40,339 nucleotides of DNA, taken from the NCBI GenBank assembly GCA_947630955.1, contig CANRJK010000001.1, forward strand, positions 1 to 40,339. Reading direction: 5' to 3'. This DNA comes from an uncultured Bacilli bacterium (lineage in GTDB: Bacteria; Bacillota_I; Bacilli_A; RF39; UBA660). The notes beneath the pieces were generated by a model. The model was given only the letters and a program-made list of their open reading frames with translations. It was not told the DNA's origin and did no database searches. A program made the translations under genes and the position numbers. Below, piece after piece: positions 2,748 through 38,159 of this stretch (position 1 is the first letter of the stretch; each line of letters starts with the position of its first letter).

Positions 2748-3830
2748 ATGATTAATGATATGAGTAGTACTGGTGTAATGGACCATAAATGTAAAAATTG
2801 TGGTGCCGTATTGAAATTTAATCCACATGATCAAAATTGGGTATGTGAGTTTTGTAAAAGTACTTTTAATAAAGACGAAATAGCATCTTATGAAAAAAGT
2901 CGTGGTGTAGAAGAGTTAACAAAGGAAACAGAAGCTGTCAAACTAGATACTAATTGGGAGGGAATGGATGTTTATTCTTGCCCAAACTGTGGTGCAGAAA
3001 TTGTAGCAGATGAAAATACTTCAGCAACTTTTTGCGTTTATTGTAAAAATACAGCTATCTTAAAAAATAAATTAGTAGGTGAATTTAATCCTAATAAAAT
3101 AATTCCTTTTTATAAGACTAAAGAAGATGCTATTGCAGCTTTCAAAAATATTGGTAAAGGAAAAATTCTAATGCCTAAATTTTTTAATAACAAAAAAAAT
3201 ATTGATGAAATACGTGGTGTTTATATCCCTTTTTGGTTATATGATTATAATGTAGCTGGCAATATTGTTGGTGAAGCAAAAAATATTAGTACGTGGACTT
3301 CAGGTGACCGACAATATACTAAGGTAGATACGTTTGCTGTAACTAGAGGGGGTTCAATGTCATTTCAAAAAATACCTGTTGATGGCTCTAATAATTTTGA
3401 TAATGACACTATGAACTCTATTGAGCCTTTTGATTATCAAGGTTTAGTTGATTTTAATCACTCTTATTTATCAGGTTTCTTAGCTCAAAAGTACGATGTT
3501 GGTAAGGATAAAGCTAGTGAAGATGCTTTAGTGCGTGCTAAAAATTCAACTAATGAAGTTTTAAAAAGAGATATAGTGGGATATGATGAAGTTATTATTA
3601 CTAACTCTAATCATAATGTTAGCTTAGTAAATTGTGATTATGTATTATTACCAGTATGGTTATTAAATATAAAGTATAAAAATAAAATTCGAACTTTTGC
3701 GATGAATGGTCAAACTGGAAAATTAATAGGTGATTTACCAATTGATTCTAAAAGAGCAATTTTTGTATGGTTATTAAGTTTTGCTATTTGTATGCTTGTA
3801 GGTTCACTTATTTGGTATATGATAGGGTGA
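2748..3830 (+). CDS. double zinc-ribbon protein with C-terminal membrane anchor
   Basis: Two CxxC...CxxC ribbons (CKNCGAVLKF..WVCEFCKS and CPNCGAEIVA..FCVYCKN) and a C-terminal TM (IFVWLLSFAICMLVGSLIWYMI). The start could instead be ATG 2760. Confidence 0.65.
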   Translation: MINDMSSTGVMDHKCKNCGAVLKFNPHDQNWVCEFCKSTFNKDEIASYEKSRGVEELTKETEAVKLDTNWEGMDVYSCPNCGAEIVADENTSATFCVYCKNTAILKNKLVGEFNPNKIIPFYKTKEDAIAAFKNIGKGKILMPKFFNNKKNIDEIRGVYIPFWLYDYNVAGNIVGEAKNISTWTSGDRQYTKVDTFAVTRGGSMSFQKIPVDGSNNFDNDTMNSIEPFDYQGLVDFNHSYLSGFLAQKYDVGKDKASEDALVRAKNSTNEVLKRDIVGYDEVIITNSNHNVSLVNCDYVLLPVWLLNIKYKNKIRTFAMNGQTGKLIGDLPIDSKRAIFVWLLSFAICMLVGSLIWYMIG

Positions 3831-3835
3831 TAGAA

Positions 3836-4660
3836 ATGAAAAAATTTATACTTGTTTTAGTTACACTTTTTTCCATTACTTTTGGTATGGGAAGAATCCA
3901 AGCAGTTGAAAGTGTTAATTCTAGTGAAAAAATTTATGATTATGGCAATTTATTAACCGAAACAGAGAAATTAGAAATAAAAGATTTAATTATGAATTTT
4001 ATTAACACATACAAATTAGATATGGTTGTAGTAACGCAAAGAAATTATTATGGTGATTTAAAAAGTTATGCACAAGATTTTTACGATTATAATGATTTTG
4101 GTGAAGGTAAAACTAATGATGGTATTTTACTAGCTTTAAATGCTGATGCTGCGGGATATGAAGCTCAGATAGTTACTACTGGTGAAGGTATTAGGATGTA
4201 TGATGATGAAAGAATTCAAAATTTATTATCAAGTATGTCTTATGTTAAAGCTGATGGAGCAGGTGCTATTGTAAAAAAATTTGTTAACTTATCAAGTAGC
4301 TATGCTAATCAAGGTATTCCAGCTAGTAATAAAAATACTTATATTGATGAAAATGGTAATTATCGTATTAAAAGAAAATATCCTGTTTTTAAATTAGGTT
4401 TAATTGCCGTTATTGTTTCAACAGTTATTTTATTGATATTAATAAATAAAAATAAAATGGTAAAAAAAGCTAGCAATGCAAAAGAATATTTGGATAATTC
4501 ATCAATTTCTATAGTCGATAGAAAAGATCAATTTTTACGAACTAATACAACTAGTGTTGTTATCGCAACTTCTGATGGAGGAAGTAGCGGTGGCGGTGGT
4601 TCATCGATAAGTTCTGGTAGTAGTGGTGTATCACATGGTGGCGGTGGTGGACGCCTATAA
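3836..4660 (+). CDS. TPM-domain (YgcG-like) membrane protein with Gly/Ser-rich tail
   Basis: Signal peptide, TPM-like core (YDYGNLLTETEKLEIKDLI...MVVVT...GILLAL), a TM, and the family-typical tail GGSSGGGGSS...HGGGGGRL. The ATG lies 6 nt after the upstream stop. Confidence 0.7.
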   Translation: MKKFILVLVTLFSITFGMGRIQAVESVNSSEKIYDYGNLLTETEKLEIKDLIMNFINTYKLDMVVVTQRNYYGDLKSYAQDFYDYNDFGEGKTNDGILLALNADAAGYEAQIVTTGEGIRMYDDERIQNLLSSMSYVKADGAGAIVKKFVNLSSSYANQGIPASNKNTYIDENGNYRIKRKYPVFKLGLIAVIVSTVILLILINKNKMVKKASNAKEYLDNSSISIVDRKDQFLRTNTTSVVIATSDGGSSGGGGSSISSGSSGVSHGGGGGRL

Positions 4661-5901: not shown

Positions 5902-6399
5902 ATGAATTTTAATCTAATGCGACTAAGAAATGGTATCGACAAACAAATAAAGGTAAATGAAAAATATACATTTCAAGAAGAACAACTTAAAAAATATGGT
6001 GTTTCTAAACTAGAGGATGTAATAATAGAAGGGGAAATAACATTAAATCCTTTAAAAGAACTATATCTTAGTCTTAATGTTAAGGGTACAATGATAATTC
6101 CTTGTGCGATAACCTTAAAACCCGTTTCTTATCCTTTTGATATTGTTATTGAAGGTGATTTATCAGAAATTTCTGATGGAGCTTTAGAAAATTCGGAAAA
6201 ATACATAAATAGTATTGATATTTTACCAATAATATGGGAAAATATATTAATGGAAATTCCTATGCGTGTTGTAAGTGAAGACGTTAAAGAGACCAAGATG
6301 AGTGGCGATGGTTGGCGTCTTATAACAGATGAGGAAGAACACATTAATCCACAATTAGCTGGATTAAAAGACTTATTACAAGATAGTGAGGTGAGATAA
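5902..6399 (+). CDS. yceD: YceD/YlbN family protein (DUF177)
   Basis: 165 aa acidic protein immediately upstream of rpmF, abutting it with no gap. This is the conserved yceD-rpmF pair. Confidence 0.75.
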   Translation: MNFNLMRLRNGIDKQIKVNEKYTFQEEQLKKYGVSKLEDVIIEGEITLNPLKELYLSLNVKGTMIIPCAITLKPVSYPFDIVIEGDLSEISDGALENSEKYINSIDILPIIWENILMEIPMRVVSEDVKETKMSGDGWRLITDEEEHINPQLAGLKDLLQDSEVR

Positions 6400-6585
6400 A
6401 TGGCAGTACCATTTAGAAAAGTTAGTAATACTAGAGGTAGAAAAAGAAGAACACATTATAAAATTAGTGAAAATGGAACTACTAAATGTCCAAAATGTGG
6501 TAGTGATATAAGACCACATCGTGTATGTTTAAATTGTGGAACATATAAAGGAAAAGAAGTTATTAAAAAAGAAGAAGAAAAATAA
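6400..6585 (+). CDS. rpmF: 50S ribosomal protein L32
   Basis: [21 protein letters not shown] plus a CxxC...CxxC zinc ribbon (CPKCGS...CLNCG). Confidence 0.95.
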
Positions 6586-6637
6586 TTTTTTTCTTTTTTT
6601 ATATTATTATGTTATAATTTTAATAGTAGGTGAGGGT

Positions 6638-7369
6638 ATGAAAAATAGTCGTAATCGTTTAACACCAATACTGATTTTTATATTATTATTACTCGTTTGG
6701 ATTTTAATCATTGTTTTAGCTTATAAATTTATTAATAATCACAAAACAAGTATTAAAAAATTAAAATTAACAGATCCTTTGGTAGCTGAATTATATTCTT
6801 ATGTTACAGATGATGATATCTTTTTCTATAGTAAAAAAGCATATGATTCTGATAATTTACCTGATGAATACCTTATAAGCAAAGCTTCAAGATATCTAAC
6901 AGTTGAGGATATTGAATTTGTAAACAATAAAGAATTTATCATATCGTATGAATCTTTAGATAACGCTATTAAAATGGCTTTTGGGCCTGATTTTAAGTAT
7001 GATTTAAGCAAGATAAATACTAATGTTTTAACCTCTTTATCGCTTAAAGAAAATAGTTATTTAAATTTAAATATTCATTATGACAGTAAGAGTAACAATT
7101 ATCTTGGAAACTATGTAGAAACAGAAAAACAAGATAAAGTAAAAGTTTATCATAAATTAGTAGAAGCAACTAAAACAGATACGGTTAATTTAAAAATTGG
7201 TTATTTATTTTATATCAAAGATAATCAATATCAAATATGTAGTGATGAGTCATGTCTTAAAGTAGTAAAGCAAGTATCTAGTTTAAAAGATATTGATTTT
7301 GATAAATTTATTACAATAAATTTAAAAAAAGCTAGTGATGAAGTATATTATTATCAAAGTAATATTTGA
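6638..7369 (+). CDS. hypothetical membrane-anchored protein
   Basis: Start moved to ATG 6638, behind TAGGTGAGGG. N-terminal TM (LTPILIFILLLLVWILIIVLAY). The upstream part of track ORF 6536.. overlaps rpmF and is rejected. Confidence 0.6.
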   Translation: MKNSRNRLTPILIFILLLLVWILIIVLAYKFINNHKTSIKKLKLTDPLVAELYSYVTDDDIFFYSKKAYDSDNLPDEYLISKASRYLTVEDIEFVNNKEFIISYESLDNAIKMAFGPDFKYDLSKINTNVLTSLSLKENSYLNLNIHYDSKSNNYLGNYVETEKQDKVKVYHKLVEATKTDTVNLKIGYLFYIKDNQYQICSDESCLKVVKQVSSLKDIDFDKFITINLKKASDEVYYYQSNI

Positions 7370-7606: not shown

Positions 7607-8278
7607 ATGGAATTAAATAGTTATATTGATCATACTAATTTAAAAGCAACTGCTAGTTTAAAAGATATTGAAAAATTATGTAAAGAAGCCAAAAAGTATC
7701 ATTTTGCTAGTGTCTGTGTTCAACCATATTATGTTCCTTTAGCTTGTGAATTGTTAAAGGGTAGTAATGTTGAAGTAGGCACTGTTGTTGGTTTTCCTTT
7801 GGGAGCAAATACAAAAGAAGTAAAAGTTTTTGAGGCTATCAATGCCGTAGAAAATGGCGCAAATGAAATTGATATGGTTATTAATTTAGGAGCTTTAAAA
7901 AATAAGGATTATGATTATGTCAAAGAAGAAATTGAAGAAATAAGAGATGCCATTGATGGCAAAGTTTTGAAAGTTATAATTGAGACTTGCTACTTAACAG
8001 ATAAAGAAATAATTAAAATGACTGAAATTTGTAATGAAACTTTTGTTAACTTTATTAAGACATCAACAGGTTTTGGTCTAGAAGGCGCTAAAGTCAAAGA
8101 TGTCGAATTAATAAGTCAACATAAAAATGAACTATTAGAAATTAAAGCTAGTGGAGGAATTAAAGATATAGAAACAGCTTTTGAAATGATTGAAGCTGGT
8201 GCGACTAGATTAGGCACAAGTAGTGGTGTTAAATTAATGCAAAGTGAAGACGATGATTGTTGTAAGGAGGAAAAATAA
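7607..8278 (+). CDS. deoC: deoxyribose-phosphate aldolase
   Basis: ASVCVQPYYV, VGTVVGFPLGA, EIDMVINLG, FIKTSTGF (Schiff-base Lys context) and IKASGGI are all DeoC hallmarks. Confidence 0.9.
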   Translation: MELNSYIDHTNLKATASLKDIEKLCKEAKKYHFASVCVQPYYVPLACELLKGSNVEVGTVVGFPLGANTKEVKVFEAINAVENGANEIDMVINLGALKNKDYDYVKEEIEEIRDAIDGKVLKVIIETCYLTDKEIIKMTEICNETFVNFIKTSTGFGLEGAKVKDVELISQHKNELLEIKASGGIKDIETAFEMIEAGATRLGTSSGVKLMQSEDDDCCKEEK

Positions 8279-9501
8279 TGACTTTATTTGAAGATTTAAA
8301 ATGGCGAGGATTGATTAAAGATATAAGTAGTCCTGAATTAGAGAAAAAATTAAATGAAGAGAAACTTACTTTTTATATTGGAACAGATCCAACAGCTGAT
8401 TCAATGCATATTGGACATTTTTCTTCATTCTTAATTGCTACTCGATTAGCCAAATATGGACATCATCCTATTTTATTAATTGGGGGCGCAACAGGACGTA
8501 TTGGAGATCCTAAACCTACTTCAGAACGTCAGATGATTACAGAAGAAGAGGTAGAAAAAAACGTTAAAGGATTAACGGAACAAGCAAAAAAAATCTTTGG
8601 TTTTGAAGTAGTAAATAATTATGATTGGACTAAAGATATAAGTATTTTAGATTTTTTACGTGATTATGGAAAATATATTAATGTTAATTATATGCTTGAT
8701 AAAGATATTATTAGCAGACGTTTAGATACAGGTATAACTTTTTGTGAATTTGCTTATACCTTACTTCAAGGAATGGACTTTGTTTATTTACATGAGAAAA
8801 AAGGTGTAACTTTACAAGTTGCTGGTTCTGATCAGTGGGGAAATATTACAACAGGAATTGAACTTGCTCGTAAAAAAAATGACATCGAACTTTTTGGTAT
8901 GACTATGCCACTTGTTTTAGATGCTAACGGTGTAAAATTTGGTAAAACAGAAGGAAATGCTTTATGGCTAGATAAAGAAAAAACATCTAGTTATGAACTA
9001 TATCAATATTTAATTAATTCAAGTGATGAATGTGTCATTGATTATTTAAAGAAACTAACTTTTTTAACTAAGGAAGAAATAGAGCAAATAGAGATTAAAC
9101 ATAATCAGAAACCAGAGGAACGTTTAGCTCAAAAAAAATTAGCTCATGAAGTCATAACTTTTTTACATGGTGAAGAAGAGTTTAATAAGGCTATTCGTAT
9201 TAGTGAAGCTTTATTTAGTGGTGATATTAGTAATTTAAGTTTGAAAGAAATAGAAGATGGACTAAAAGATGTTCCAAACTTTAAAGCTGTTGATAGTACA
9301 TTAATTGATTTACTAGTAAATAATAAAATTGCCTCTAGTAGAAGAGAAGCAAGAGAATTTTTAAATGCAGGCTCAATTACTTTAAATGGAAACAAAGTAA
9401 TGGATGAAAATATGTTAATAACTAAAGACTTAGCTATTGAACAAAAAGCTATCATTATTAGAAGAGGTAAGAAAAAATATTACATGGGTTTATTTGAATA
9501 A
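8278..9501 (+). CDS. tyrS: tyrosine--tRNA ligase
   Basis: HIGH motif (SMHIGHF), KMSKS-type KFGKT and a C-terminal S4 domain. The ATG overlaps the deoC stop (TAATG). Confidence 0.95.
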   Translation: MTLFEDLKWRGLIKDISSPELEKKLNEEKLTFYIGTDPTADSMHIGHFSSFLIATRLAKYGHHPILLIGGATGRIGDPKPTSERQMITEEEVEKNVKGLTEQAKKIFGFEVVNNYDWTKDISILDFLRDYGKYINVNYMLDKDIISRRLDTGITFCEFAYTLLQGMDFVYLHEKKGVTLQVAGSDQWGNITTGIELARKKNDIELFGMTMPLVLDANGVKFGKTEGNALWLDKEKTSSYELYQYLINSSDECVIDYLKKLTFLTKEEIEQIEIKHNQKPEERLAQKKLAHEVITFLHGEEEFNKAIRISEALFSGDISNLSLKEIEDGLKDVPNFKAVDSTLIDLLVNNKIASSRREAREFLNAGSITLNGNKVMDENMLITKDLAIEQKAIIIRRGKKKYYMGLFE

Positions 9502-9529: not shown

Positions 9530-9711
9530 GTTCTTAAGTTATTTACTTTATAACACTATTTACTGATATAATAATACCATTTTACCCTTATAAAGTAAAG
9601 TGTTTTTTCTTAAATAAAAACGATAAAAAAGCAAAATGTATTATTACTATTTAGCTCATATACCTTTATTTTCCAACAAAGTAGTTGTCCTTAAGTAAAT
9701 AACTTAAGGAC
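9530..9711. repeat. 19-bp inverted repeats (18/19) flanking a 144-bp promoter-bearing segment
   Basis: Left GTTCTTAAGTTATTTACTT (9530-9548). The reverse complement of 9693-9711 is GTCCTTAAGTTATTTACTT. The right copy is also part of a perfect 10-bp hairpin (9687-9711) abutting the SD AGGTGA. TGATATAAT lies at 9564-9572 inside the segment. Confidence 0.7.
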
Positions 9712-10581
9712 AGGTGAATGGAATATGAAAAAGGTAAAAAATAAAAATATGATGGTATTATTAGTAATTGTTATAGTAACCTTAACGAGTAGTATAGGGT
9801 ATAGTGCGTTACAATCAAATTTAAAAGTAACAGCAGATTTAAATGTATTAAAAGACTATGTACCAGATGGGACACTATATGATATGATGCATCACATATC
9901 AGAAATGGATAATACAAGTAGCAAATATGTAAGTAGTCCTAGTGGCATAGAATTCTCACAGATATCATCAGATACCAATGGCAAGGGAGTGTATGAGTTA
10001 TACACAACAAAAGATGACAAATATCCTATTCATTATTACCGAGGCGAAGTAGATAACAATGTGATATTTGCAAACTTTTGTTGGAAGATAATTAGAACTA
10101 CGGAAACTGGGGGTATAAAACTAATTTACAATGGCGAACCAAGTGACGATGGCAAGTGTGATAATACGGGTGAAAATATGATGAAGCAAAATATGTAGGA
10201 TATAAATATGACAATGACGAAGTAGATAGTACCATAAAAACGAAAATAGAGTCATGGTATAAAACAAATATCGACGAAAAGAAAGACGCGAGTGGGAAAA
10301 GCTACACGACTTATCTAGAAGATACAATATTCTGTAATGATCGAAGCTCAAGAATATCAGAAAGTAATGTCTTCTATGGAGCCTATGATAGAAATTTTAT
10401 CAACAGGACTCCAAGTTTAGCTTGTAATGAAGAAGATAAGTTTACAGTAGCAAATAAAAAACTAGCGTATCCAGTAGGATTAATAACAAATGATGAAACA
10501 GTATATGCAGGAGGAGTATGGAATATAGACAACAGTACATATTATTTAAATACTGGAGAGTGGTACTGGACGATGTCACCT

Positions 10582-10665
10582 TCTCAGTTCTATGACGGCA
10601 TCGCTCGCGTGTGGGGCGTCTATTCGTCTGCTTACCTCAACATCAGTAGTGTCGTTTACGGCAGC
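10582..10665 (+). other. hypervariable patch 1 (DGR-VR-like), 28 codons
   Basis: Lies between conserved ATGTCACCT and TACGGCGTCCGCCCA. Hand count: 45/84 G+C and 13/84 A in an AT-rich gene, with many NNC codons. Confidence 0.6.
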
Positions 10666-11517
10666 TACGGCGTCCGCCCAGTAGTATCCTTAAAGCAAGG
10701 AACAAAATACTTAAGTGGAAATGGTAGCAAAGATACTCCATATTTAATAACACCAATAACTAAGTCATTATATAATGTAATAAAAACAAAATCAGTATTG
10801 GATAATATCAAAAGTAAATATGTAGAATCAGAAATAGGGATCGATTTTAGTAAGATTTCATCCGATACAAATGGCAAAGGAGTATATGAGTTACATACAA
10901 CAGCAAGTGATAAATATCCGGTTTATTATTATCGAGGAGCCGTAACAGATAATAATATAATATTTGCAAACTTCTGTTGGAAGATAATCAGAACGACAGA
11001 AACCGGGGGAATAAAATTAATATATAATGGCGAACCAAGTGATGATGGTAAGTGTGATAATACAGATGCAGCAACAGAAATAGGAACTTCAGCATATAAT
11101 GAAAATTATGATGAATCACAATATGTAGGATATAAATATGATAATGATGAAGTAGATAGTACCATAAAAATAAAAATAGATTCATGGTATAAAACGAATA
11201 TCGATGAAAAGAAAGACGCAAGTGGAAAAAGTTATACAACGTATATAGAAGATTTGAAATTTTGTAATGATAGAAGTATAACAAGTGCATCAGGAAGTAG
11301 TATATACTACGGAGCATATGGTAGGAACTATATAAGTAGAACTCCAAGTTTGGAATGTCCTCAAGACGAGGATAAATTTACCGTCGCAAATAAGAAATTA
11401 ACATATCCTGTCGGACTAATAACAACTGATGAAACAGCATACGCTGGGGGAGTATTTGGCATTGATAATAACACATACTATTTATATACAGGAAATTATT
11501 ACTGGACAATGTCACCT

Positions 11518-11601
11518 TGTTACTTCATTGGAATCCACTCTAGCGTGTGGCGTGTTAATTCCGATGGTGGGCTCAACTACTTCAACGTTAGCAACTCCAC
11601 C
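11518..11601 (+). other. hypervariable patch 2 (DGR-VR-like), 28 codons
   Basis: Same flanks (ATGTCACCT ... TACGGCGTTCGCCCA) and the same 84-nt length. Hand count: 40/84 G+C, 18/84 A. Only 45/84 nt are identical to patch 1. Confidence 0.6.
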
Positions 11602-11691
11602 TACGGCGTTCGCCCAGTCATCAATCTAATACCAAATACCCAAGTAACAGGCGTTGGTACTAGTGATAACCCGTATATCGTTCAGTAAACA

Positions 11692-11722
11692 AAAAAGGAT
11701 GAAATTTTTTATCATCCTTTTT
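11692..11722. terminator. bidirectional terminator between the convergent surface-protein gene and rpsD
   Basis: AAAAAGGATGA / TCATCCTTTTT, an 11-bp stem with A-run and T-run flanks. It overlaps the rpsD stop. Confidence 0.8.
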
Positions 11723-12323
11723 ATCTGTTGTAGAATTCGACAATTAATGATTCATTAATATCAGCATTTAGTTCACTTCTTTGTGGTAATCTTACATAAG
11801 TACCAGACATTTTCTTATCATCAAAGTTAACAAAGTCTGCTCTTTTTGCTAAAGAACTTAATGAATCTTTAACAATTTTTAATTCTTTATCAGATTCTTT
11901 TAATGCAATTACATCACCAGGTTTACAAGTATATGATGGAATATCAACTTTTCTACCATTTACTGTAATATGTCCATGGTTAACTAGTTGTCTAGCTCCT
12001 TTACGAGTTGTAGATAAACCTAAACGATAGGTAATGTTGTCTAGACGACTTTCAAGAAGAACTAGTAAATTTTCACCATGTACACCTTTCATTTTTCCAG
12101 CTTTTTCAAAAACTCTTTTGAATTGCTTTTCACTTAGACCATACATGAATCTAACTTTTTGTTTTTCTTGTAATTGAACACCATAATCAGATAATTTTTT
12201 ACCACGCTTATTCCCATGCTCACCAGGAATATAAGGCTTTTTAGCTAATTCTTTACCAGTTTCTAAAGTTGAAAAACCTAAACGACGTGATTTTTTGTAT
12301 CTTGATCCAGTATATCTTGACAT
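11721..12323 (-). CDS. rpsD: 30S ribosomal protein S4
   Basis: [16 protein letters not shown]... and an S4 domain ([31 protein letters not shown]). Start set at the MSRY ATG (12323), behind GGAGA. Confidence 0.95.
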
Positions 12324-12473
12324 CTTCATTCTCCTTTCTTTTGATGAATGAAGCAATCTTCTAGGTATATAGGGTGTTTAACTTAAATATGTTCACCTTG
12401 CAGCTAGGTTACAAATAACCCCTATAGGTAATAAACACGTTATATATCTAAAGAGAGCCCTGCATACATCGCA
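12324..12473 (-). promoter_or_regulatory. long structured 5' UTR of rpsD (candidate S4 autoregulatory leader)
   Basis: About 150 nt between the predicted TSS and the ATG. Plus-strand helices: TATAGGG (12368-74) / CCCTATA (12422-28) and CTGC..GCAG near 12460-12475. Confidence 0.45.
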
Positions 12474-12479
12474 GTTACA

Positions 12480-12508
12480 ATTATATTATTTTATTGCTTT
12501 TATGTCAA
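12480..12508 (-). promoter_or_regulatory. consensus sigma-A promoter for rpsD
   Basis: On the minus strand: TTGACA (12508-12503), 17-nt spacer, TATAAT (12485-12480). Confidence 0.75.
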
Positions 12509-12570
12509 GCTAAATTGTGGGGCTTTGTAGTGAGTTAAATAAAAAACCATCGCTAAAAGTTAGATAATAG

Positions 12571-12599
12571 TCGAAAAATCACGTTTTTTATGTTATACT
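12571..12599 (+). promoter_or_regulatory. extended -10 promoter for ezrA
   Basis: TCGAAA, 17-nt spacer, TGtTATACT (12591-12599), followed by a short leader ATAGTAGGTGA. Confidence 0.55.
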
Positions 12600-12617
12600 T
12601 AAATAGTAGGTGATGCT

Positions 12618-14351
12618 ATGAATCCAACATTGATTATTGTGACGATTTTAATTGTATCGTTGATATTAACCTTTTTAGCAATCTTTTTTGTTCGTAGTTA
12701 TAAAACAAGACGTATTAAGAAAGCTTTAAGTCAGTTAGAAATTGAAAAGAATAAGATTGATTCTTCACCAATTATTCCAGAACTTGCTAAAGTAGAAGCT
12801 TACTTAAAAAATGAAAAAGTAGAGGCTATGTATGAACAGTGGAGTAATCGTCTAAAAAAAATTAAAGATGAACAGATTCCTATGTTAGCTGATATGATTT
12901 TGGAAACAGAATATTCTTTATCACAAAAAGATTACAAAACAACCATCTATAAGATAGCTAAGTTAGAAATGGAATTGTATAAAGTAAGAACTAATTCTGA
13001 ATTTTTATTGGGTGAAATAAAAGAGATAACTTCTAGTGAAGAACGTAGTCGTGTCGTTGTAACTGATTTTAAGGTTCGTTTTCGTGAATTACATCAAAAG
13101 TTTCAAGATAATAAAGCTGATTTTGGTAATATAGCTGGGGTTGTTAATAAACAATTTGAACTTATTTCTAAACAGTTTGAAAAGTATGAAACGATTATGG
13201 ATAATAATGATTATACTGAAGTAAATAATATTTTAAAGGATATCGATGATTTACTTAAACATATGGCTATTGTTATTGAGGAAGTTCCATCAATTGTCTT
13301 ATTAAGTACTAGTGTCATTCCTAAGAAAATAGCTGAGGTTGAGGATGTTTATAATAAAATGATCAAGGCTTCTTACCCACTTGATTATTTGAATGTTGAA
13401 TATAATATAGATGAGGCAAATAAAAAATTAAATGATATCATTATTAGAACTAGAAGTTTAAATCTTGAAGATAGTTTGTTTGAACTTAAAGTTTTACTAG
13501 ATTATTTTGAATCTTTATTTGGTGATTTTGATAAAGAAAAAGCAGCCCGAGCTAAGTATGCTGAAACAAATACTAATTTTAAAAAGAAATTAGATAAGAT
13601 AAATAGTATTGTTGAAGATATTTTTTCTCAATTAGAAGACCTTAAAAATGTTTATAATTTATCTGATGATAGTACTGAGGTATTGCGTGACATACGTAAA
13701 GATTTAAATTTAATTGACGAAGATTATGCAAGTCTTTTAGAACACATTATGCAAAATAGTTTTTCTTATTCCAAAATGCTTAAAGAATTAGAAACGCTAA
13801 CAAGTCGTTTAGCTAATTTAGAAGATCATCTTGATTCAACTCTTGATACTTTAGGCAATATGCGTGAAGATGAGGTTCGTGCGCGTCAGCAATTAGAAGA
13901 AATTAAGATTGTTTTAAAAGATGCTAAATTAAAAATTAGAGAGTATAATTTACCAGTTATTCCACAAAGTTATTATGTAGAGCTTAAAGAAGCTAGTAGC
14001 GCTATTCGTGAAATAATCAAGGAATTAGATAAAAAACCAATAACTATTAGTGTTTTAAATACGCGTGTTGATACGGCTCGTGATTTAGTTTTAAAGTTGT
14101 ATTCTAAAACTAAAGAGATATTAAAAACAGCAGCTTTTGCTGAGGCTGTTATCGTTTATGGTAATCGTTATCGTAGTAGCTATGATGGTTTAAGTAATAA
14201 ACTTAATTTAGCTGAACAATTGTTTTTTAAAGGCGAATATAAAAAGTCTTTAGAGTTAACGATTAATTTGTTAAATAAAATAGAACCAGGTATATATAAT
14301 CGTTTATTAAAAATGTATAAACCAGTTACTGAAGGTGATTTAAGTGAATAA
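12618..14351 (+). CDS. ezrA: septation ring formation regulator EzrA
   Basis: 577 aa with one N-terminal TM and a long coiled-coil body. Size, layout and EzrA-like sequence. Confidence 0.85.
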   Translation: MNPTLIIVTILIVSLILTFLAIFFVRSYKTRRIKKALSQLEIEKNKIDSSPIIPELAKVEAYLKNEKVEAMYEQWSNRLKKIKDEQIPMLADMILETEYSLSQKDYKTTIYKIAKLEMELYKVRTNSEFLLGEIKEITSSEERSRVVVTDFKVRFRELHQKFQDNKADFGNIAGVVNKQFELISKQFEKYETIMDNNDYTEVNNILKDIDDLLKHMAIVIEEVPSIVLLSTSVIPKKIAEVEDVYNKMIKASYPLDYLNVEYNIDEANKKLNDIIIRTRSLNLEDSLFELKVLLDYFESLFGDFDKEKAARAKYAETNTNFKKKLDKINSIVEDIFSQLEDLKNVYNLSDDSTEVLRDIRKDLNLIDEDYASLLEHIMQNSFSYSKMLKELETLTSRLANLEDHLDSTLDTLGNMREDEVRARQQLEEIKIVLKDAKLKIREYNLPVIPQSYYVELKEASSAIREIIKELDKKPITISVLNTRVDTARDLVLKLYSKTKEILKTAAFAEAVIVYGNRYRSSYDGLSNKLNLAEQLFFKGEYKKSLELTINLLNKIEPGIYNRLLKMYKPVTEGDLSE

Positions 14352-20157: not shown

Positions 20158-21232
20158 GTGTATCGTTTGGATTTTCATTAATAGGTTGACTTGAAATGTT
20201 ATCAGGTTGTGTAGCTTGTGGTGTTACTATATCGTTTGAATTTGCTTGTTCAACTGGTGCTACAGGTGTTTGCATAGGCGAAACCTGTGGCATCGATGGA
20301 TTAGGCATTTGTTCAACTGGGTTTTGATTAATTGGTTGTGCTGGTTGTGCTGGTTGTGGTTGTGGCTGTGGTACTGGATTTGTAGGTGCCACAGTTGGTT
20401 GAACAGGTTGAACAGGTGTATTTATAGTGCTATCTACTTGAGGATTAGGATTTTGTTCTACTGTTTTAGCCACAGCTGGATTTCCTTTCTTTTTATTACC
20501 ACTAATGATAACAATTACTACAATAACAACGATAGCAGCAAGAGCTATTCCACCATATAATAGTAATTGATTATTGCTAGTTTTACCATTTAACTCAAAT
20601 TCTAGTTCGATAGGTTTATTAGCGTTCTTTATTAAGTCCCAAGTTAATGTTTTACCATCATCTGAAACGCTTGTTGCGTTATGTTTAATTGGTTTATTAG
20701 GTAAACTAATAATAAATTTCATATCGAAGATAGAATCAAGGCTAACACCATTTAAGTCACTTGATGATGCTTGACTTGTTACATCATCAACATCTTCAAG
20801 CTTAATATTTAAAGAATATTTATCACCTTTTTTAACAAATAATTCTTTATTTACTAAGTCATTAGAATCAGAAATAGTTTCTGCTCCTTTTGAACCACTT
20901 ATATCATCAATATTTTTAACATTAGTGGTTAACTTATAACCTTTGAATCCATTTTCTGTATATTTTTCAACTTTGAAATTTTTAGATTCTTTATCAATAT
21001 CAAGACTTTCCTCTAAATATTTCCATTTGTCTGCTTCTGTATATGAAGCATTTGAATTATTATCATCGTCTGATAACATCATTTCAAGTAATTCATCATC
21101 CATACCGATGATAACTGATAAATCCATGGATTTATCACTTTTAATGGCCATATTATATTCAGCTTTCATTTTACATCCACTAACTAGTAAAACAGCCATT
21201 AATAAAACAACTAAATGTTTTAATTTTCTCAA
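20147..21232 (-). CDS. lipoprotein with C-terminal TM and Pro/Gln-rich tail
   Basis: Lipobox LLVSGC, TM LLLYGGIALAAIVVIVVIVIISG, and tail PVQPVQPTVAPTNPVPQPQPQPAQPAQP. The likely start is TTG 21232, behind AGGAGTG (MRKLKHL...). Confidence 0.7.
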   Translation of the reverse strand: MRKLKHLVVLLMAVLLVSGCKMKAEYNMAIKSDKSMDLSVIIGMDDELLEMMLSDDDNNSNASYTEADKWKYLEESLDIDKESKNFKVEKYTENGFKGYKLTTNVKNIDDISGSKGAETISDSNDLVNKELFVKKGDKYSLNIKLEDVDDVTSQASSSDLNGVSLDSIFDMKFIISLPNKPIKHNATSVSDDGKTLTWDLIKNANKPIELEFELNGKTSNNQLLLYGGIALAAIVVIVVIVIISGNKKKGNPAVAKTVEQNPNPQVDSTINTPVQPVQPTVAPTNPVPQPQPQPAQPAQPINQNPVEQMPNPSMPQVSPMQTPVAPVEQANSNDIVTPQATQPDNISSQPINENPNDTQKM

Positions 21233-33409: not shown

Positions 33410-35419
33410 ATGGTAATAGTAATGACAGAAGATAATGTTAAAGTATATGATATAAGCGATGAAGAATTTGAAAAGCTTAGAAATAACAATAATCAAAAAG
33501 AACTTGATAAACATGTAATATACCAATTATCAAAGTTGGCTTACTCACCTGAAAAAATGCAGCAACAATTAAAAGATAAATTATTAGGCATAAAATCATA
33601 CTATTTTGACGATAGCACGTTAGGCCTAGTAAAAAAGCAAATATCGACAATTAATCAGATTCGTTATCCTGATGTTTTAAGTGATCCCTTAAATGGTTTT
33701 AACGTGCCTAAAAGCAATGATATTGTCATAAATCCTATGTATGCTGAGTTAATAGCTTTAGATAATGAATTAAATGCTAGTGAACATATTACCAATCTAT
33801 TACCACCTCATCTTATCAATGAGTTTAAAAAATTTTATAGCCAAGAACAATATCTTAATGCCAAAAAAAATAGAGTTGTTCATATCGATAAACCATATGT
33901 TTTAAATTCTTTTTATGAATTTGAATCATTTTCTAAATTAATTATAAAAAATAGTAACAACAGTTTAAAAACATCACAGTTAGAAGGTGCCATTCATTTG
34001 GTTGTAGCGCCAGCTGGAATGACAGAAGATGGCAAAGTAAAATATTTTGTTGAAGAATATAAAATAACTAAAGAAGACTTACAAGATATATCATCTAGAG
34101 TAAGAAAATACGCTCGTCAAGATGGTATTAAATTAACTGATTTAACTGATGATGAAAAATATTCTTATTATGACAGAGCTGTTAGAGAGTACAAACAAAA
34201 TTTATTTGGTGAATTAACTGGTTTAAACAATAAAAAGAAAACTATTATTCAAAGTAAAACGGTGACATGGTTAGAATATAAAAAAGAATTTTTAAATAAA
34301 TATGGATATCCTGTTCCTGAATTTGATGCAACATGGTTGCCATTTGATAAGACTATTATTGATGCTAGAACAATTCATAATGGAAATATTGTTCTTATAA
34401 CAATTGAAGCTTATCAAAGAGAAGCATCTAAAGAAACACAAATTAAAATTCCTAATTTTGTTAATCGTATGCAAACAACAAGACGTTTCTTTTTTGATGA
34501 AAATAGTGGCTTATCTCCATTATCAGTTGATGAAGATGCGAGTACCCTTACACCTTTGAATGTAGTTCCTTTAAATGAAGATGGACAAAATCAAAACTTT
34601 TTTGCAGGTGATGAAGATGTTCCAGCAGCTCCAGTTTTTCCACCTGAAGATACAGATGATTTATTTGGTAGTGTTGAAGGGGAAGAAATATCAGACCATG
34701 GATTGGAAGATGCGCCATCTCAAAGTTCATTTGCAGATGATGATGAAGATGTTCCAGTAATTCCAGCTTTTCAAACAGAAGATATAGATGATTTATTTGA
34801 TAGTGTTGAGGGGGAAGAAATATCAGACAATGAATTGAAAGATGAGCCATCTCAAAGCTCACTTGCTGATGATGAGAAAGATGCCCCAGAAATTCCAACC
34901 ACTCAAACAGAAGATTTGTATGCTTTTGTTGATAATACTGGGTTGTTAACACCCAAAGAAGTAAATGATTTAATACATAATTATATTAGTGATTATAACG
35001 AAATAGTGGATAGTATAAAAAAATGTAATTTCGTATTATCTGCTGCTAAAAATAAATTACCCAAACAAATAAAAAATAATGATTTAATTGCAATTGCAAA
35101 AACAATAGAAGAAATTGAAACATCTGTTAGACAAGCAAATAACTTAATTGAAACTGAATTACATAAACTGCTGTTGGAAATAATTAAACCTAAAGATTCT
35201 AAATTTAATATACCAGATTCAGTTCAGTTTGAATATTTAAGTGAATACTTTAGAAATTCTATCAATAAAACATATAATAAAATTGTTGCTGTATATAGCA
35301 GGTTATCTGTCTTGTGTGATGAATTAGGTTTAAAGGATGCATTAGATGACACTGATAGCAATGTTGATGAAAAAATTTTAGAAACACCAGAATATACAGT
35401 TTCTTTACCAAAGATATAG
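33410..35419 (+). CDS. hypothetical 669-aa protein with internal acidic 44-aa repeats
   Basis: Long ORF with RBS AGGAGTGA. No catalytic motif recognised. Confidence 0.6.
   Translation: MVIVMTEDNVKVYDISDEEFEKLRNNNNQKELDKHVIYQLSKLAYSPEKMQQQLKDKLLGIKSYYFDDSTLGLVKKQISTINQIRYPDVLSDPLNGFNVPKSNDIVINPMYAELIALDNELNASEHITNLLPPHLINEFKKFYSQEQYLNAKKNRVVHIDKPYVLNSFYEFESFSKLIIKNSNNSLKTSQLEGAIHLVVAPAGMTEDGKVKYFVEEYKITKEDLQDISSRVRKYARQDGIKLTDLTDDEKYSYYDRAVREYKQNLFGELTGLNNKKKTIIQSKTVTWLEYKKEFLNKYGYPVPEFDATWLPFDKTIIDARTIHNGNIVLITIEAYQREASKETQIKIPNFVNRMQTTRRFFFDENSGLSPLSVDEDASTLTPLNVVPLNEDGQNQNFFAGDEDVPAAPVFPPEDTDDLFGSVEGEEISDHGLEDAPSQSSFADDDEDVPVIPAFQTEDIDDLFDSVEGEEISDNELKDEPSQSSLADDEKDAPEIPTTQTEDLYAFVDNTGLLTPKEVNDLIHNYISDYNEIVDSIKKCNFVLSAAKNKLPKQIKNNDLIAIAKTIEEIETSVRQANNLIETELHKLLLEIIKPKDSKFNIPDSVQFEYLSEYFRNSINKTYNKIVAVYSRLSVLCDELGLKDALDDTDSNVDEKILETPEYTVSLPKI
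34598..34925 (+). repeat. in-frame 132-bp tandem repeat, about 2.5 copies
   Basis: GATGAAGATGTTCCAG at 34610 and 34742, with a diverged copy at 34874. Encodes DEDVPxxPxFxxEDxDDLFxSVEGEEISDxxLxDxPSQSS. Confidence 0.85.
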
Positions 35420-38082: not shown

Positions 38083-38159
38083 GGCGACGTAGCTCAGTTG
38101 GCTAGAGCACATGGTTCATACCCATGGTGTCGAGAGTTCGAATCTCCCCGTCGCTACCA
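38083..38159 (+). tRNA. tRNA-Met (anticodon CAT), elongator-like, encoded CCA
   Basis: Cloverleaf readable by eye: acceptor GGCGACG/CGTCGCT, D-arm AGCTCAGTTGGCTAGAGC, anticodon arm CATGG-TTCATAC-CCATG, T-arm GAGAGTTCGAATCTCCC. No initiator GGG/CCC anticodon stem. tRNA-Ile2 (lysidine) cannot be excluded from sequence alone. Confidence 0.9.

Follow-up and report, generated by a model that had tools for sequence, protein, structure and literature searches.

The stretch of DNA analysed here (the window: 40,339 nucleotides (nt), contig CANRJK010000001.1 of assembly GCA_947630955.1, from an uncultured Bacilli bacterium) is chromosomal DNA of a spore-forming member of the Bacilli. Its G+C content is 26.8%, and its genes, according to Pfam searches of its 30 open reading frames (ORFs), include yunB, tyrS, rpsD, ezrA, thiI, miaB, cotE, cdsA, rseP and addAB. 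The subject of this account is a gene that encodes a secreted or surface protein with two tandem DUF6273 (C-type-lectin-like) domains of about 300 amino acids (aa), and in particular a hypervariable patch at the end of each domain. With 34% G+C the gene exceeds the average of the window; it starts with a hydrophobic signal or anchor peptide, which is followed by two tandem units of about 0.93 kb. In the following list VR1 and VR2 denote the two putative variable regions (VRs) of a diversity-generating retroelement (DGR).

9725-11688, plus strand: surface-protein gene, located between tyrS (8278-9501) and the convergent rpsD (11721-12356)
9725-10198, plus strand: first ORF of the disrupted gene, with the signal or anchor peptide (MKKVKNKNMMVLLVIVIVTLTSS...) and the first third of unit 1; the TAG at its end was created by a frameshift
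10573-11688, plus strand: second ORF of the disrupted gene, downstream of the frameshift
9860-10758 (approximate limits), plus strand: repeat unit 1, an extended DUF6273-type domain of about 300 aa, in two frames due to a deletion
Between 10172 and 10173, plus strand: 34-nt deletion in unit 1, seen in the unit alignment, the three-frame translation and the protein alignment
10759-11688, plus strand: repeat unit 2 including the stop codon, an extended DUF6273-type domain
10564-10686, plus strand: VR1 footprint, the putative extent of template homology, consisting of TACTGGACGATGTCACCT, 29 codons of hypervariable pattern and GGCGTCCGCCCAGTAGTA; core 10582-10668
10666-10679, plus strand: G+C-rich 3' boundary motif TACGGCGTCCGCCC at VR1
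11500-11619, plus strand: VR2 footprint; hypervariable core 11518-11604; G+C 48%
11602-11615, plus strand: G+C-rich 3' boundary motif TACGGCGTTCGCCC at VR2

The 34 nt missing from unit 1 are present in unit 2 and in all full-length (about 660 aa) homologues. Their loss, which a preliminary description of this DNA had overlooked, shifts the reading frame, so that the gene is called as two ORFs, and the first of these aligns with the N-termini of the homologues P0001-P0012. In this contig the gene is either a pseudogene or an assembly error.

The patches (10582-10665 and 11518-11601) have the same length of 84 nt and the same neighbours, ATGTCACCT before and TACGGCGTYCGCCCA after both, as the preliminary description had reported. 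They are identical at only 45 of 84 nt (54%), whereas the rest of the unit alignment is identical at 533 of 675 positions (79%; Fisher p = 2e-6; binomial P of at most 45 of 84 at p = 0.79, 2e-7); the latter value lies at or just below the bottom of the 80-90% range that had been estimated by eye. The differences between the patches fall on first, second and third codon positions in the proportion 15/14/10, in agreement with the earlier count, as against 28/29/85 outside (p = 2e-4). The ratio of transitions to transversions is 12:27 in the patch and 81:61 outside; two independent random draws of bases give a ratio of 1:2. In our recount 23 codons differ between the patches, 20 of them non-synonymously and 3 synonymously, rather than the 24 and 21 given before, while the 13 codons that keep their third base and the fully invariant codons TTC, GTG, TGG, CTC and AAC were counted correctly. 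A third patch of equal length is found in unit 2 of a homologue from a related rabbit-gut metagenome-assembled genome (MAG; GCA_947632255.1, contig L001). Over all 29 codons no gap separates these three patches, and the rest of the unit alignment contains four indels; in more distant family members the length of the patch is not kept, and indels occur.

The composition of the patches sets them apart from the DNA around them. The estimates made earlier by hand were accurate, with 53.6% G+C and 15.5% A in VR1 and 47.6% G+C and 21.4% A in VR2, and among all 84-nt stretches of the window the patches rank first and third in G+C content. In the two 119-nt segments that contain them the G+C content of third codon positions (GC3) is 65%, compared to 21% for the remainder of the gene and 14% for housekeeping genes (p = 2e-14), and the excess of G and C extends to silent four-fold sites in ACN, TCN and GTN codons in and beside the patch. 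Neither Lys nor Glu occurs among the 58 patch residues, in contrast to 11.6% in the protein. One could attribute patch and frameshift alike to a chimeric or mis-assembled metagenomic contig in which repeats or strains were mixed or collapsed: the contig is of the MAG type, and tandem 0.9-kb repeats and a 34-nt deletion mark a kind of site where assembly tends to go wrong. However, both patches are in frame and equal in length, keep the scaffold residues of the family and have conserved flanks, and the same architecture with G+C-rich patches recurs in sequences assembled independently from rabbit, human and other samples. We consider an artefact of this kind very improbable.

The three equal-length patches allow an adenine test that needs no template, over 87 aligned sites. 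The 38 invariant sites include only 3 A (expected 39.5%, p = 1e-5), and at the 49 variable sites G, T, A and C occur 42, 36, 36 and 33 times, which is near uniform despite a genome of 27% G+C. The preliminary description had interpreted both patches as VRs of a DGR. The signature of such regions is present (adenine-depleted invariant sites, even use of bases at variable sites, substitutions only, and residues of the NNY type), but a recent template with adenine-free third positions shared by both patches is contradicted by 10 differences at 29 third positions. When A is placed at every variable site, the resulting template is rich in AAC and AAT codons, as had been predicted, and also contains A-ending four-fold codons (ACa, TCa, GTa); because template codons of the latter kind mutate silently, they would account for the G and C at silent sites in and beside the patch.

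The third codon positions also bear on when the patches were written. VR1 and the unit-2 patch of L001, although they belong to different genomes and to different units, match at 25 of 29 third positions (4 of 29 differ, compared to a background divergence of 39%; p = 0.003). Such agreement would result if, once the units had diverged, both patches were overwritten from near-identical templates, and VR1 looks, from this comparison, recently re-templated. VR2 differs from VR1 and from the L001 unit-2 patch at 9-10 of 29 third positions. The 10 of 29 between VR1 and VR2, 6 of which are of the C/T type, equal the background level and imply that the two were not recently rewritten by one template with adenine-free third positions. 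VR2 looks older, and may have been written earlier or from a different template and have drifted since.

These observations lead to an alternative that shares the DGR origin with our preferred explanation and differs from it only on present activity, namely that the patches are relics, written by an ancestral DGR of which no working reverse transcriptase (RT) or template repeat (TR) is left, and that they drift along with a decaying, frameshifted gene. The frameshift itself fits such a history, as do the background-level divergence of VR1 and VR2, whose C/T differences are what AT-biased decay would give, the lower G+C content of VR2, and the unit-1 patch of the L001 homologue, which is AT-richer, one codon shorter and looks like a decayed VR. 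A pattern search found no TR in the related MAG, and DUF6273 targets are reported to persist in some phages that have no DGR (bioRxiv 10.1101/2024.10.15.618418). On the other hand, GC3 in the patches is still 65% where that of housekeeping genes is 14%, and the third positions that VR1 shares with the other unit of another genome argue for re-templating after the units diverged. The absence of a TR is weak evidence, because MAGs often miss mobile elements. Relic status is a possibility that we take seriously, though only tentatively.

The patches lie at the C-terminal end of the DUF6273 domain, which is a published DGR target domain. The two-unit protein matches the Pfam family DUF6273 (PF19789) above the gathering threshold (37.7 bits compared to a cutoff of 23.5, E = 2.5e-9), with the C-terminal 45 or so residues of each unit corresponding to positions 127-170 of the 172 in the profile. 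Unit 2 alone scores 21.7 bits, just under the cutoff of 23.5, and matches only the last 45 or so profile positions; 23 of 61 single-unit homologues match DUF6273 at E ≤ 0.001. The surface protein is thus a divergent member of DUF6273. The preliminary description was right to recognise the C-terminal end of a lectin-like domain, but the resemblance to DUF1566 or Fib_succ that it suggested does not hold: Lcl_C/DUF1566 was rejected as below threshold, with 12.8 bits (cutoff 34.9, E = 0.15) over the C-terminal end of the profile only. Fold prediction, which had been recommended, gave an AlphaFold2 model of unit 2 (60 homologues; mean predicted local distance difference test score, pLDDT, 94.9) in which the patch (residues 254-282) forms a beta-hairpin and the strands that follow it. 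With this model Foldseek returned one significant match in the PDB, to the DUF6273 domain of 9qa6 (E = 9e-5 over 320 alignment columns), and in BFVD matches to phage DUF6273 proteins and to receptor-binding proteins, whereas matches to classical C-type lectins were marginal only (E about 3). A profile search of PDB sequences found no match at E ≤ 10. The resemblance of DUF6273 to the C-type lectin, with DGR VRs at its C-terminus, has been described before (PMC10743442, PMC11792537, bioRxiv 10.1101/2024.10.15.618418).

The family to which this protein belongs is large, with 5,527 relatives at E ≤ 0.001 among 8,000 candidates scored, and its samples come from rabbit, human and chicken gut. No sequence near-identical to the window's protein was present in the protein collection; the nearest relatives are two-unit proteins, 61-73% identical, from NCBI MAGs, one of them on the rabbit-gut 'uncultured Bacilli' contig introduced above (L001/L002). 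In every homologue the segment from YWTMSP to GVRPV is hypervariable, with conserved scaffold residues alternating with variable ones. Among 12 and 61 homologues, Lys, Glu, Gln, Met and Trp together make up 3-4% of the residues in hypervariable columns as opposed to 14-17% elsewhere, and Tyr, Ser, Asn, Gly and Asp dominate. The paralogue family is dispersed among housekeeping genes. It also forms arrays within genomes: the 22-kb contig L012 of GCA_964637865.1 carries three single-unit paralogues (771-2252, 10001-11488 and 11579-13060), composed of a camelysin-like N-domain and one DUF6273 unit, each with its own G+C-rich hypervariable patch.

Variation within closely related sequences is concentrated in the patch. 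In two 90%-identity clusters of single-unit family members (13 and 12 members, about 50% identical to the window protein), the patch has 7.6 and 15 times as many amino-acid differences per site as the remainder (p = 3e-8 and 5e-10), and Lys, Glu, Gln, Met and Trp are absent from the variable columns. DNA was compared for three orthologous alleles of a human-gut relative (L068, L078 and L079). Their locus has the order ftsY-ylxM-DUF87-target-ffh and a G+C content of 32%, and the nearest named organism is Candidatus Scybalousia intestinigallinarum (in the NCBI taxonomy now Candidatus Alloscybalousia). Identity among the alleles is 98-99% in the 3.5-kb flanks, 98.7-99.6% over the gene body between nt 361 and the patch, and 100% downstream of the patch, but it is only 76-80% within the patch. 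Of the 25 sites that vary in the patch, 12 are first, 13 second and none third codon positions (12/13/0), and at 20 of the 25 at least one allele has an A. The preliminary description had proposed to look in related strains for polymorphism confined to the patch, and in these relatives, about 50% identical to the window protein, it is found at codon positions 1 and 2 only. The pattern is the textbook AAC-to-NNC picture, and it shows that members of this family are hypermutated in nature without an RT closer than 10 kb. From the allele data the relative's template is predicted to read aaC TaC TTC AaT GGT AGT aaT GCG aGC GTG TTC aaC GTG aaC TCG aCT GGC AaC CTC aAC aaC AaC aaC GTC AaC aaC aCG aaC GGC GTT CGG CCT. 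The same alleles contain an N-terminal mosaic: over the first 360 nt of the target gene (signal peptide and N-domain end) L068 is only 85.6% identical to L078 and L079, which are identical to each other there. This mosaic is of the recombination type and is unrelated to the patch.

Related genes are also present in phages. The contig IMGVR_UViG_3300029619_000274 (L013/L014), found by searching viral contigs with a pattern of the patch flanks, belongs to a temperate phage with integrase, repressor, ERF and SSB genes; in its early region a small DUF6273 gene (6391-7048) lies between those for the ERF recombinase and SSB. A second temperate-phage contig, IMGVR_UViG_3300045988_158321 (L061), contains an intact small DUF6273 homologue (1932-2549), again in the early region. 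Both phage genes have a G+C-rich VR-like patch with the same DNA flanks as the patches in the window. The patch of the L013 copy includes an in-frame TAG (6913-6915), as blind mutagenesis would sometimes produce.

No retroelement would be required if the patch were a ligand-binding loop under ordinary diversifying selection, perhaps aided by gene conversion between paralogues as in cassette-based antigenic variation. Donors exist, since the family is large and often forms tandem arrays (the three paralogues in L012; two on one 13-kb contig); some members have indels in the patch, such as a 15-aa insertion in P0005; and neither RT nor TR was found. However, selection on the protein leaves unexplained the G and C of silent positions and the bias towards NNC codons in a genome of 27% G+C, the adenine depletion of invariant sites, the 12/13/0 split with perfectly conserved third positions between flanks that are 98-100% identical, and the in-frame stop in the phage copy. 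Gene conversion could move patches between genes, but it could not create the pattern. This explanation is improbable.

The G+C-rich motif at the 3' end of the patches may belong to a DGR mechanism. In the form TACGGCGTNCGNCC it ends the G+C-rich patches in both window VRs, in L012 (two), L013, L059, L061 and L068; in the unit-2 patch of L001 GGC replaces the leading TAC of TACGGCGTNCGNCC. In all lineages examined it is kept at the DNA level, despite backgrounds of 27-33% G+C and otherwise diverged sequences. We regard it as a candidate for an element like the initiation of mutagenic homing (IMH) site, or for the point at which template homology ends on the 3' side. In the prototype IMH the first stretch consists of G and C only.

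Several observations weigh against the DGR explanation. The gene is frameshifted, and the third positions of its two patches have diverged to background level. Several codons of the reconstructed template would be AAA, and such codons are unusual in DGR templates, since they can mutate to stops. One allele of the human-gut relative is unchanged on 18 contigs from different samples, so that diversification can be no more than episodic. The 3' motif is not followed by any hairpin that the two window patches share. To these points the outcome of the search for RT and TR has to be added. The preliminary description had placed both outside the window, and the window indeed contains neither: there is no RT among its 30 ORFs, and blastn-short searches of the window with both patches and their flanks gave reciprocal flank matches only. 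The pattern of invariant bases was searched in 185,579 species-representative genomes, a set that includes the related MAG GCA_947632255.1 and is without the window's own genome, and the only match was the VR on the L001 contig; the nine matches in metagenomes of the Joint Genome Institute (JGI) lie on contigs of 46-72% G+C and are due to chance, and IMG/VR gave no match. A template repeat whose mismatches are restricted to A, for which a search had been suggested, was thus not found in the genome, metagenome and viral collections searched (own genome not among them). No A-biased repeat pair occurs in 58 sequences (57 loci and the window); loci beyond these were checked for RT domains and copies of the VR only. 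The adjacent RT and Avd-like gene that were to be looked for were found neither in the window nor in the 10 kb around related targets, including, for the RT, the neighbourhoods of L001, L012, L058 and L059, and no Avd-like gene was found in the examined loci or, with the same exception of the own genome, in public collections. The two patch-bearing phage contigs contain no RT or TR in 29.2 of 33.2 kb and 21.5 of 23.8 kb (88-90%). Searches of phage and plasmid collections with predicted templates, that of the human-gut relative included, found no match (blastn; runs of AAC may have been masked by the low-complexity filter); GenBank phages yielded no useful match in tblastn searches with the lectin end and with the phage protein, and a search of viral contigs with the unit alignment found no relative. 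The AT-richer unit-1 patch of L001 was considered as a template and rejected, because its length differs.

The absence of RT and TR does not refute the DGR origin, because remote targets are known and MAGs, as noted above, often lack mobile elements. Remote targets are documented, and are missed by surveys based on cassettes (PMC8144416, PMC4891356), and both remote targets and multiple VRs per DGR have been described (PMC8144416, PMC3521204, PMC11661182, PMC4891356). On balance, strong though indirect evidence makes it quite probable that the patches are variable regions of the DGR type, located at the tips of the protein's two tandem lectin-like DUF6273 domains. Under this explanation the last 29 or so codons before the conserved GVRPV of each domain would be the variable region, and the patch would have been replaced by cDNA from an adenine-rich template repeat whose adenines were copied as random bases. 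The template and the reverse transcriptase are parts of the mechanism that we infer. The template would read roughly TAC TGG ACa ATG TCa CCT TaT aAa TTC aaT Gaa aaC aaC aCT aaC GTG TGG ... aaC GGC GTa CGC CCA GT, and the repeat would be expected as 110-130 nt matching TACTGGACNATGTCNCC ... GGCGTNCGCCCAGT. Rewriting of this kind would keep the scaffold residues (F, VW, V, S, L, GVRP) and turn the alternating, ligand-facing positions into NNC or NNT codons. RT and template would not adjoin the target; they may have another place in the genome or belong to a mobile element, making this a remote target, or may have been lost. A more far-reaching and rather doubtful extension is that a large family, dispersed in uncultured low-G+C gut Bacilli and made up of chromosomal DUF6273 surface proteins, some with two VRs, and of small DUF6273 genes from the early regions of resident prophages, all with the G+C-rich 3' motif TACGGCGTYCGSCC, is served in trans by one DGR, either of the host or carried by a mobile element.

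Among known systems, the DUF6273 targets of DGRs in gut phages are comparable in domain family, by Pfam and fold, and in the position of the VR at the C-terminal end of DUF6273. They comprise tentaclins and Mtd-like second targets, the targets of the Faecalibacterium prophages Lelie, CP11, Roos and Pioen, and Toutatisvirus. The patch, modelled here as a beta-hairpin and strands, corresponds to a VR described in the gut phages as a surface beta-hairpin (PMC10743442). Described for the phage systems are a second target, separated from the TR by more than 17 kb, and phages that keep targets without a DGR (PMC10743442, PMC11792537, bioRxiv 10.1101/2024.10.15.618418). In contrast to these, the gene described here is chromosomal, in the tyrS/rpsD interval of one uncultured spore-forming low-G+C member of the Bacilli; its domain is extended to about 300 aa, with an N-terminal part (CWKIIRTTETGG motif) that was not found in IMG/VR; the domain is tandemly duplicated and each copy bears a patch; and neither RT nor TR lies close by.

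With the prototype DGR from Bordetella phage BPP-1 (Mtd/Brt/TR) the window shares the signature of adenine-type substitution, the AAC-to-NNC logic, the restriction to substitutions and a VR at the C-terminal end of a fold of the C-type-lectin type. In BPP-1 a G+C-rich element, the IMH, is located at the 3' end of the VR; the candidate motif of the window may correspond to it. The differences are that BPP-1 has mtd, avd, TR and brt contiguously, whereas no cassette was found here, and that here the genome has 27% G+C and several of the reconstructed template codons would be AAA. In the cellular DGRs of Treponema denticola and others a single template is believed to act on several surface-protein genes that are scattered and remote from the RT (PMC4891356, PMC8144416), and the dispersal of the present paralogue family among housekeeping genes is similar. 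However, the RT and TR of those systems are known, and their targets have mostly lectin folds of the DUF1566 or FGE-sulfatase type, not DUF6273. The only solved structure that matches the whole unit of about 300 aa is the N-terminal domain in Thomasclavelia ramosa IgA peptidase (9qa6), whose residues 31-322 were annotated as DUF6273 by its authors (PMC12402451). That protein, too, comes from a low-G+C gut Bacillota member and is surface-anchored (PMC12402451), but sequence identity is 14%, its DUF6273 domain is fused to an M64 peptidase and is dispensable for catalysis (PMC12402451), and no hypervariable patch has been reported in it.

Other features of the window include a likely transcription terminator of the surface-protein gene and three peaks of G+C content, which were considered as further VRs and rejected, being a Gly/Ser-rich tail, a low-complexity repeat and a tRNA gene.

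11692-11722, plus strand: hairpin with 11-nt arms, AAAAAGGATGA / TCATCCTTTTT, directly after the stop codon; likely a terminator shared with the convergent rpsD
4572-4655: Gly/Ser-rich C-terminal tail of a TPM-domain protein
20333-20416: low-complexity repeat in a minus-strand LppM-domain gene
38083-38159: tRNA-Met gene

A further stem-loop of 27 nt (9686-9712; TGTCCTTAAGT...ACTTAAGGACA), with 11-nt arms and a 5-nt loop, is located directly upstream of the surface-protein gene's ribosome-binding site; a terminator scan flagged it on the minus strand. The ORF at 33410-35419 encodes 669 aa without a Pfam match, in which an acidic segment some 45 aa long (DEDVP..P..ED.DDLF.SVEGEEISD...PSQSS.ADD) occurs twice; this ORF was considered as a family member and rejected, as it is unrelated to the surface protein. 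The ORF at 2748-3830 (360 aa) has sub-threshold zinc-ribbon matches only (TFIIB Zn-ribbon; Cas12f1-like TNB domain, E about 2e-5).

Mechanism and target domain have both been published, as have remote targets, DGRs with multiple VRs (PMC3521204) and genes with multiple VRs (PMC11661182). In the literature on DUF6273 and on DGRs with terms beginning with Erysipelotrich, we did not find the chromosomal family of uncultured gut Bacilli described as DGR targets. Two variable regions in one protein are rare, with four genes reported to have two (PMC11661182), and in the protein described here they would give a bivalent binder whose two sites vary independently. Surveys that look for VRs next to an RT miss such targets (PMC8144416); these could be found by a composition-based signature that needs no template, consisting of a patch of NNC codons that stands out by its G+C content within an AT-rich gene, invariant sites poor in adenine and a conserved 3' motif. 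Should a DGR indeed serve the family in trans, it would constitute a genome-wide 'DGR regulon', with targets that are never adjacent to the RT and are therefore invisible to cassette-based DGR surveys. If our interpretation of the patches is right, uncultured gut Bacilli possess a widespread, undescribed family of surface proteins whose lectin-like tips would be rewritten by a distant retroelement.

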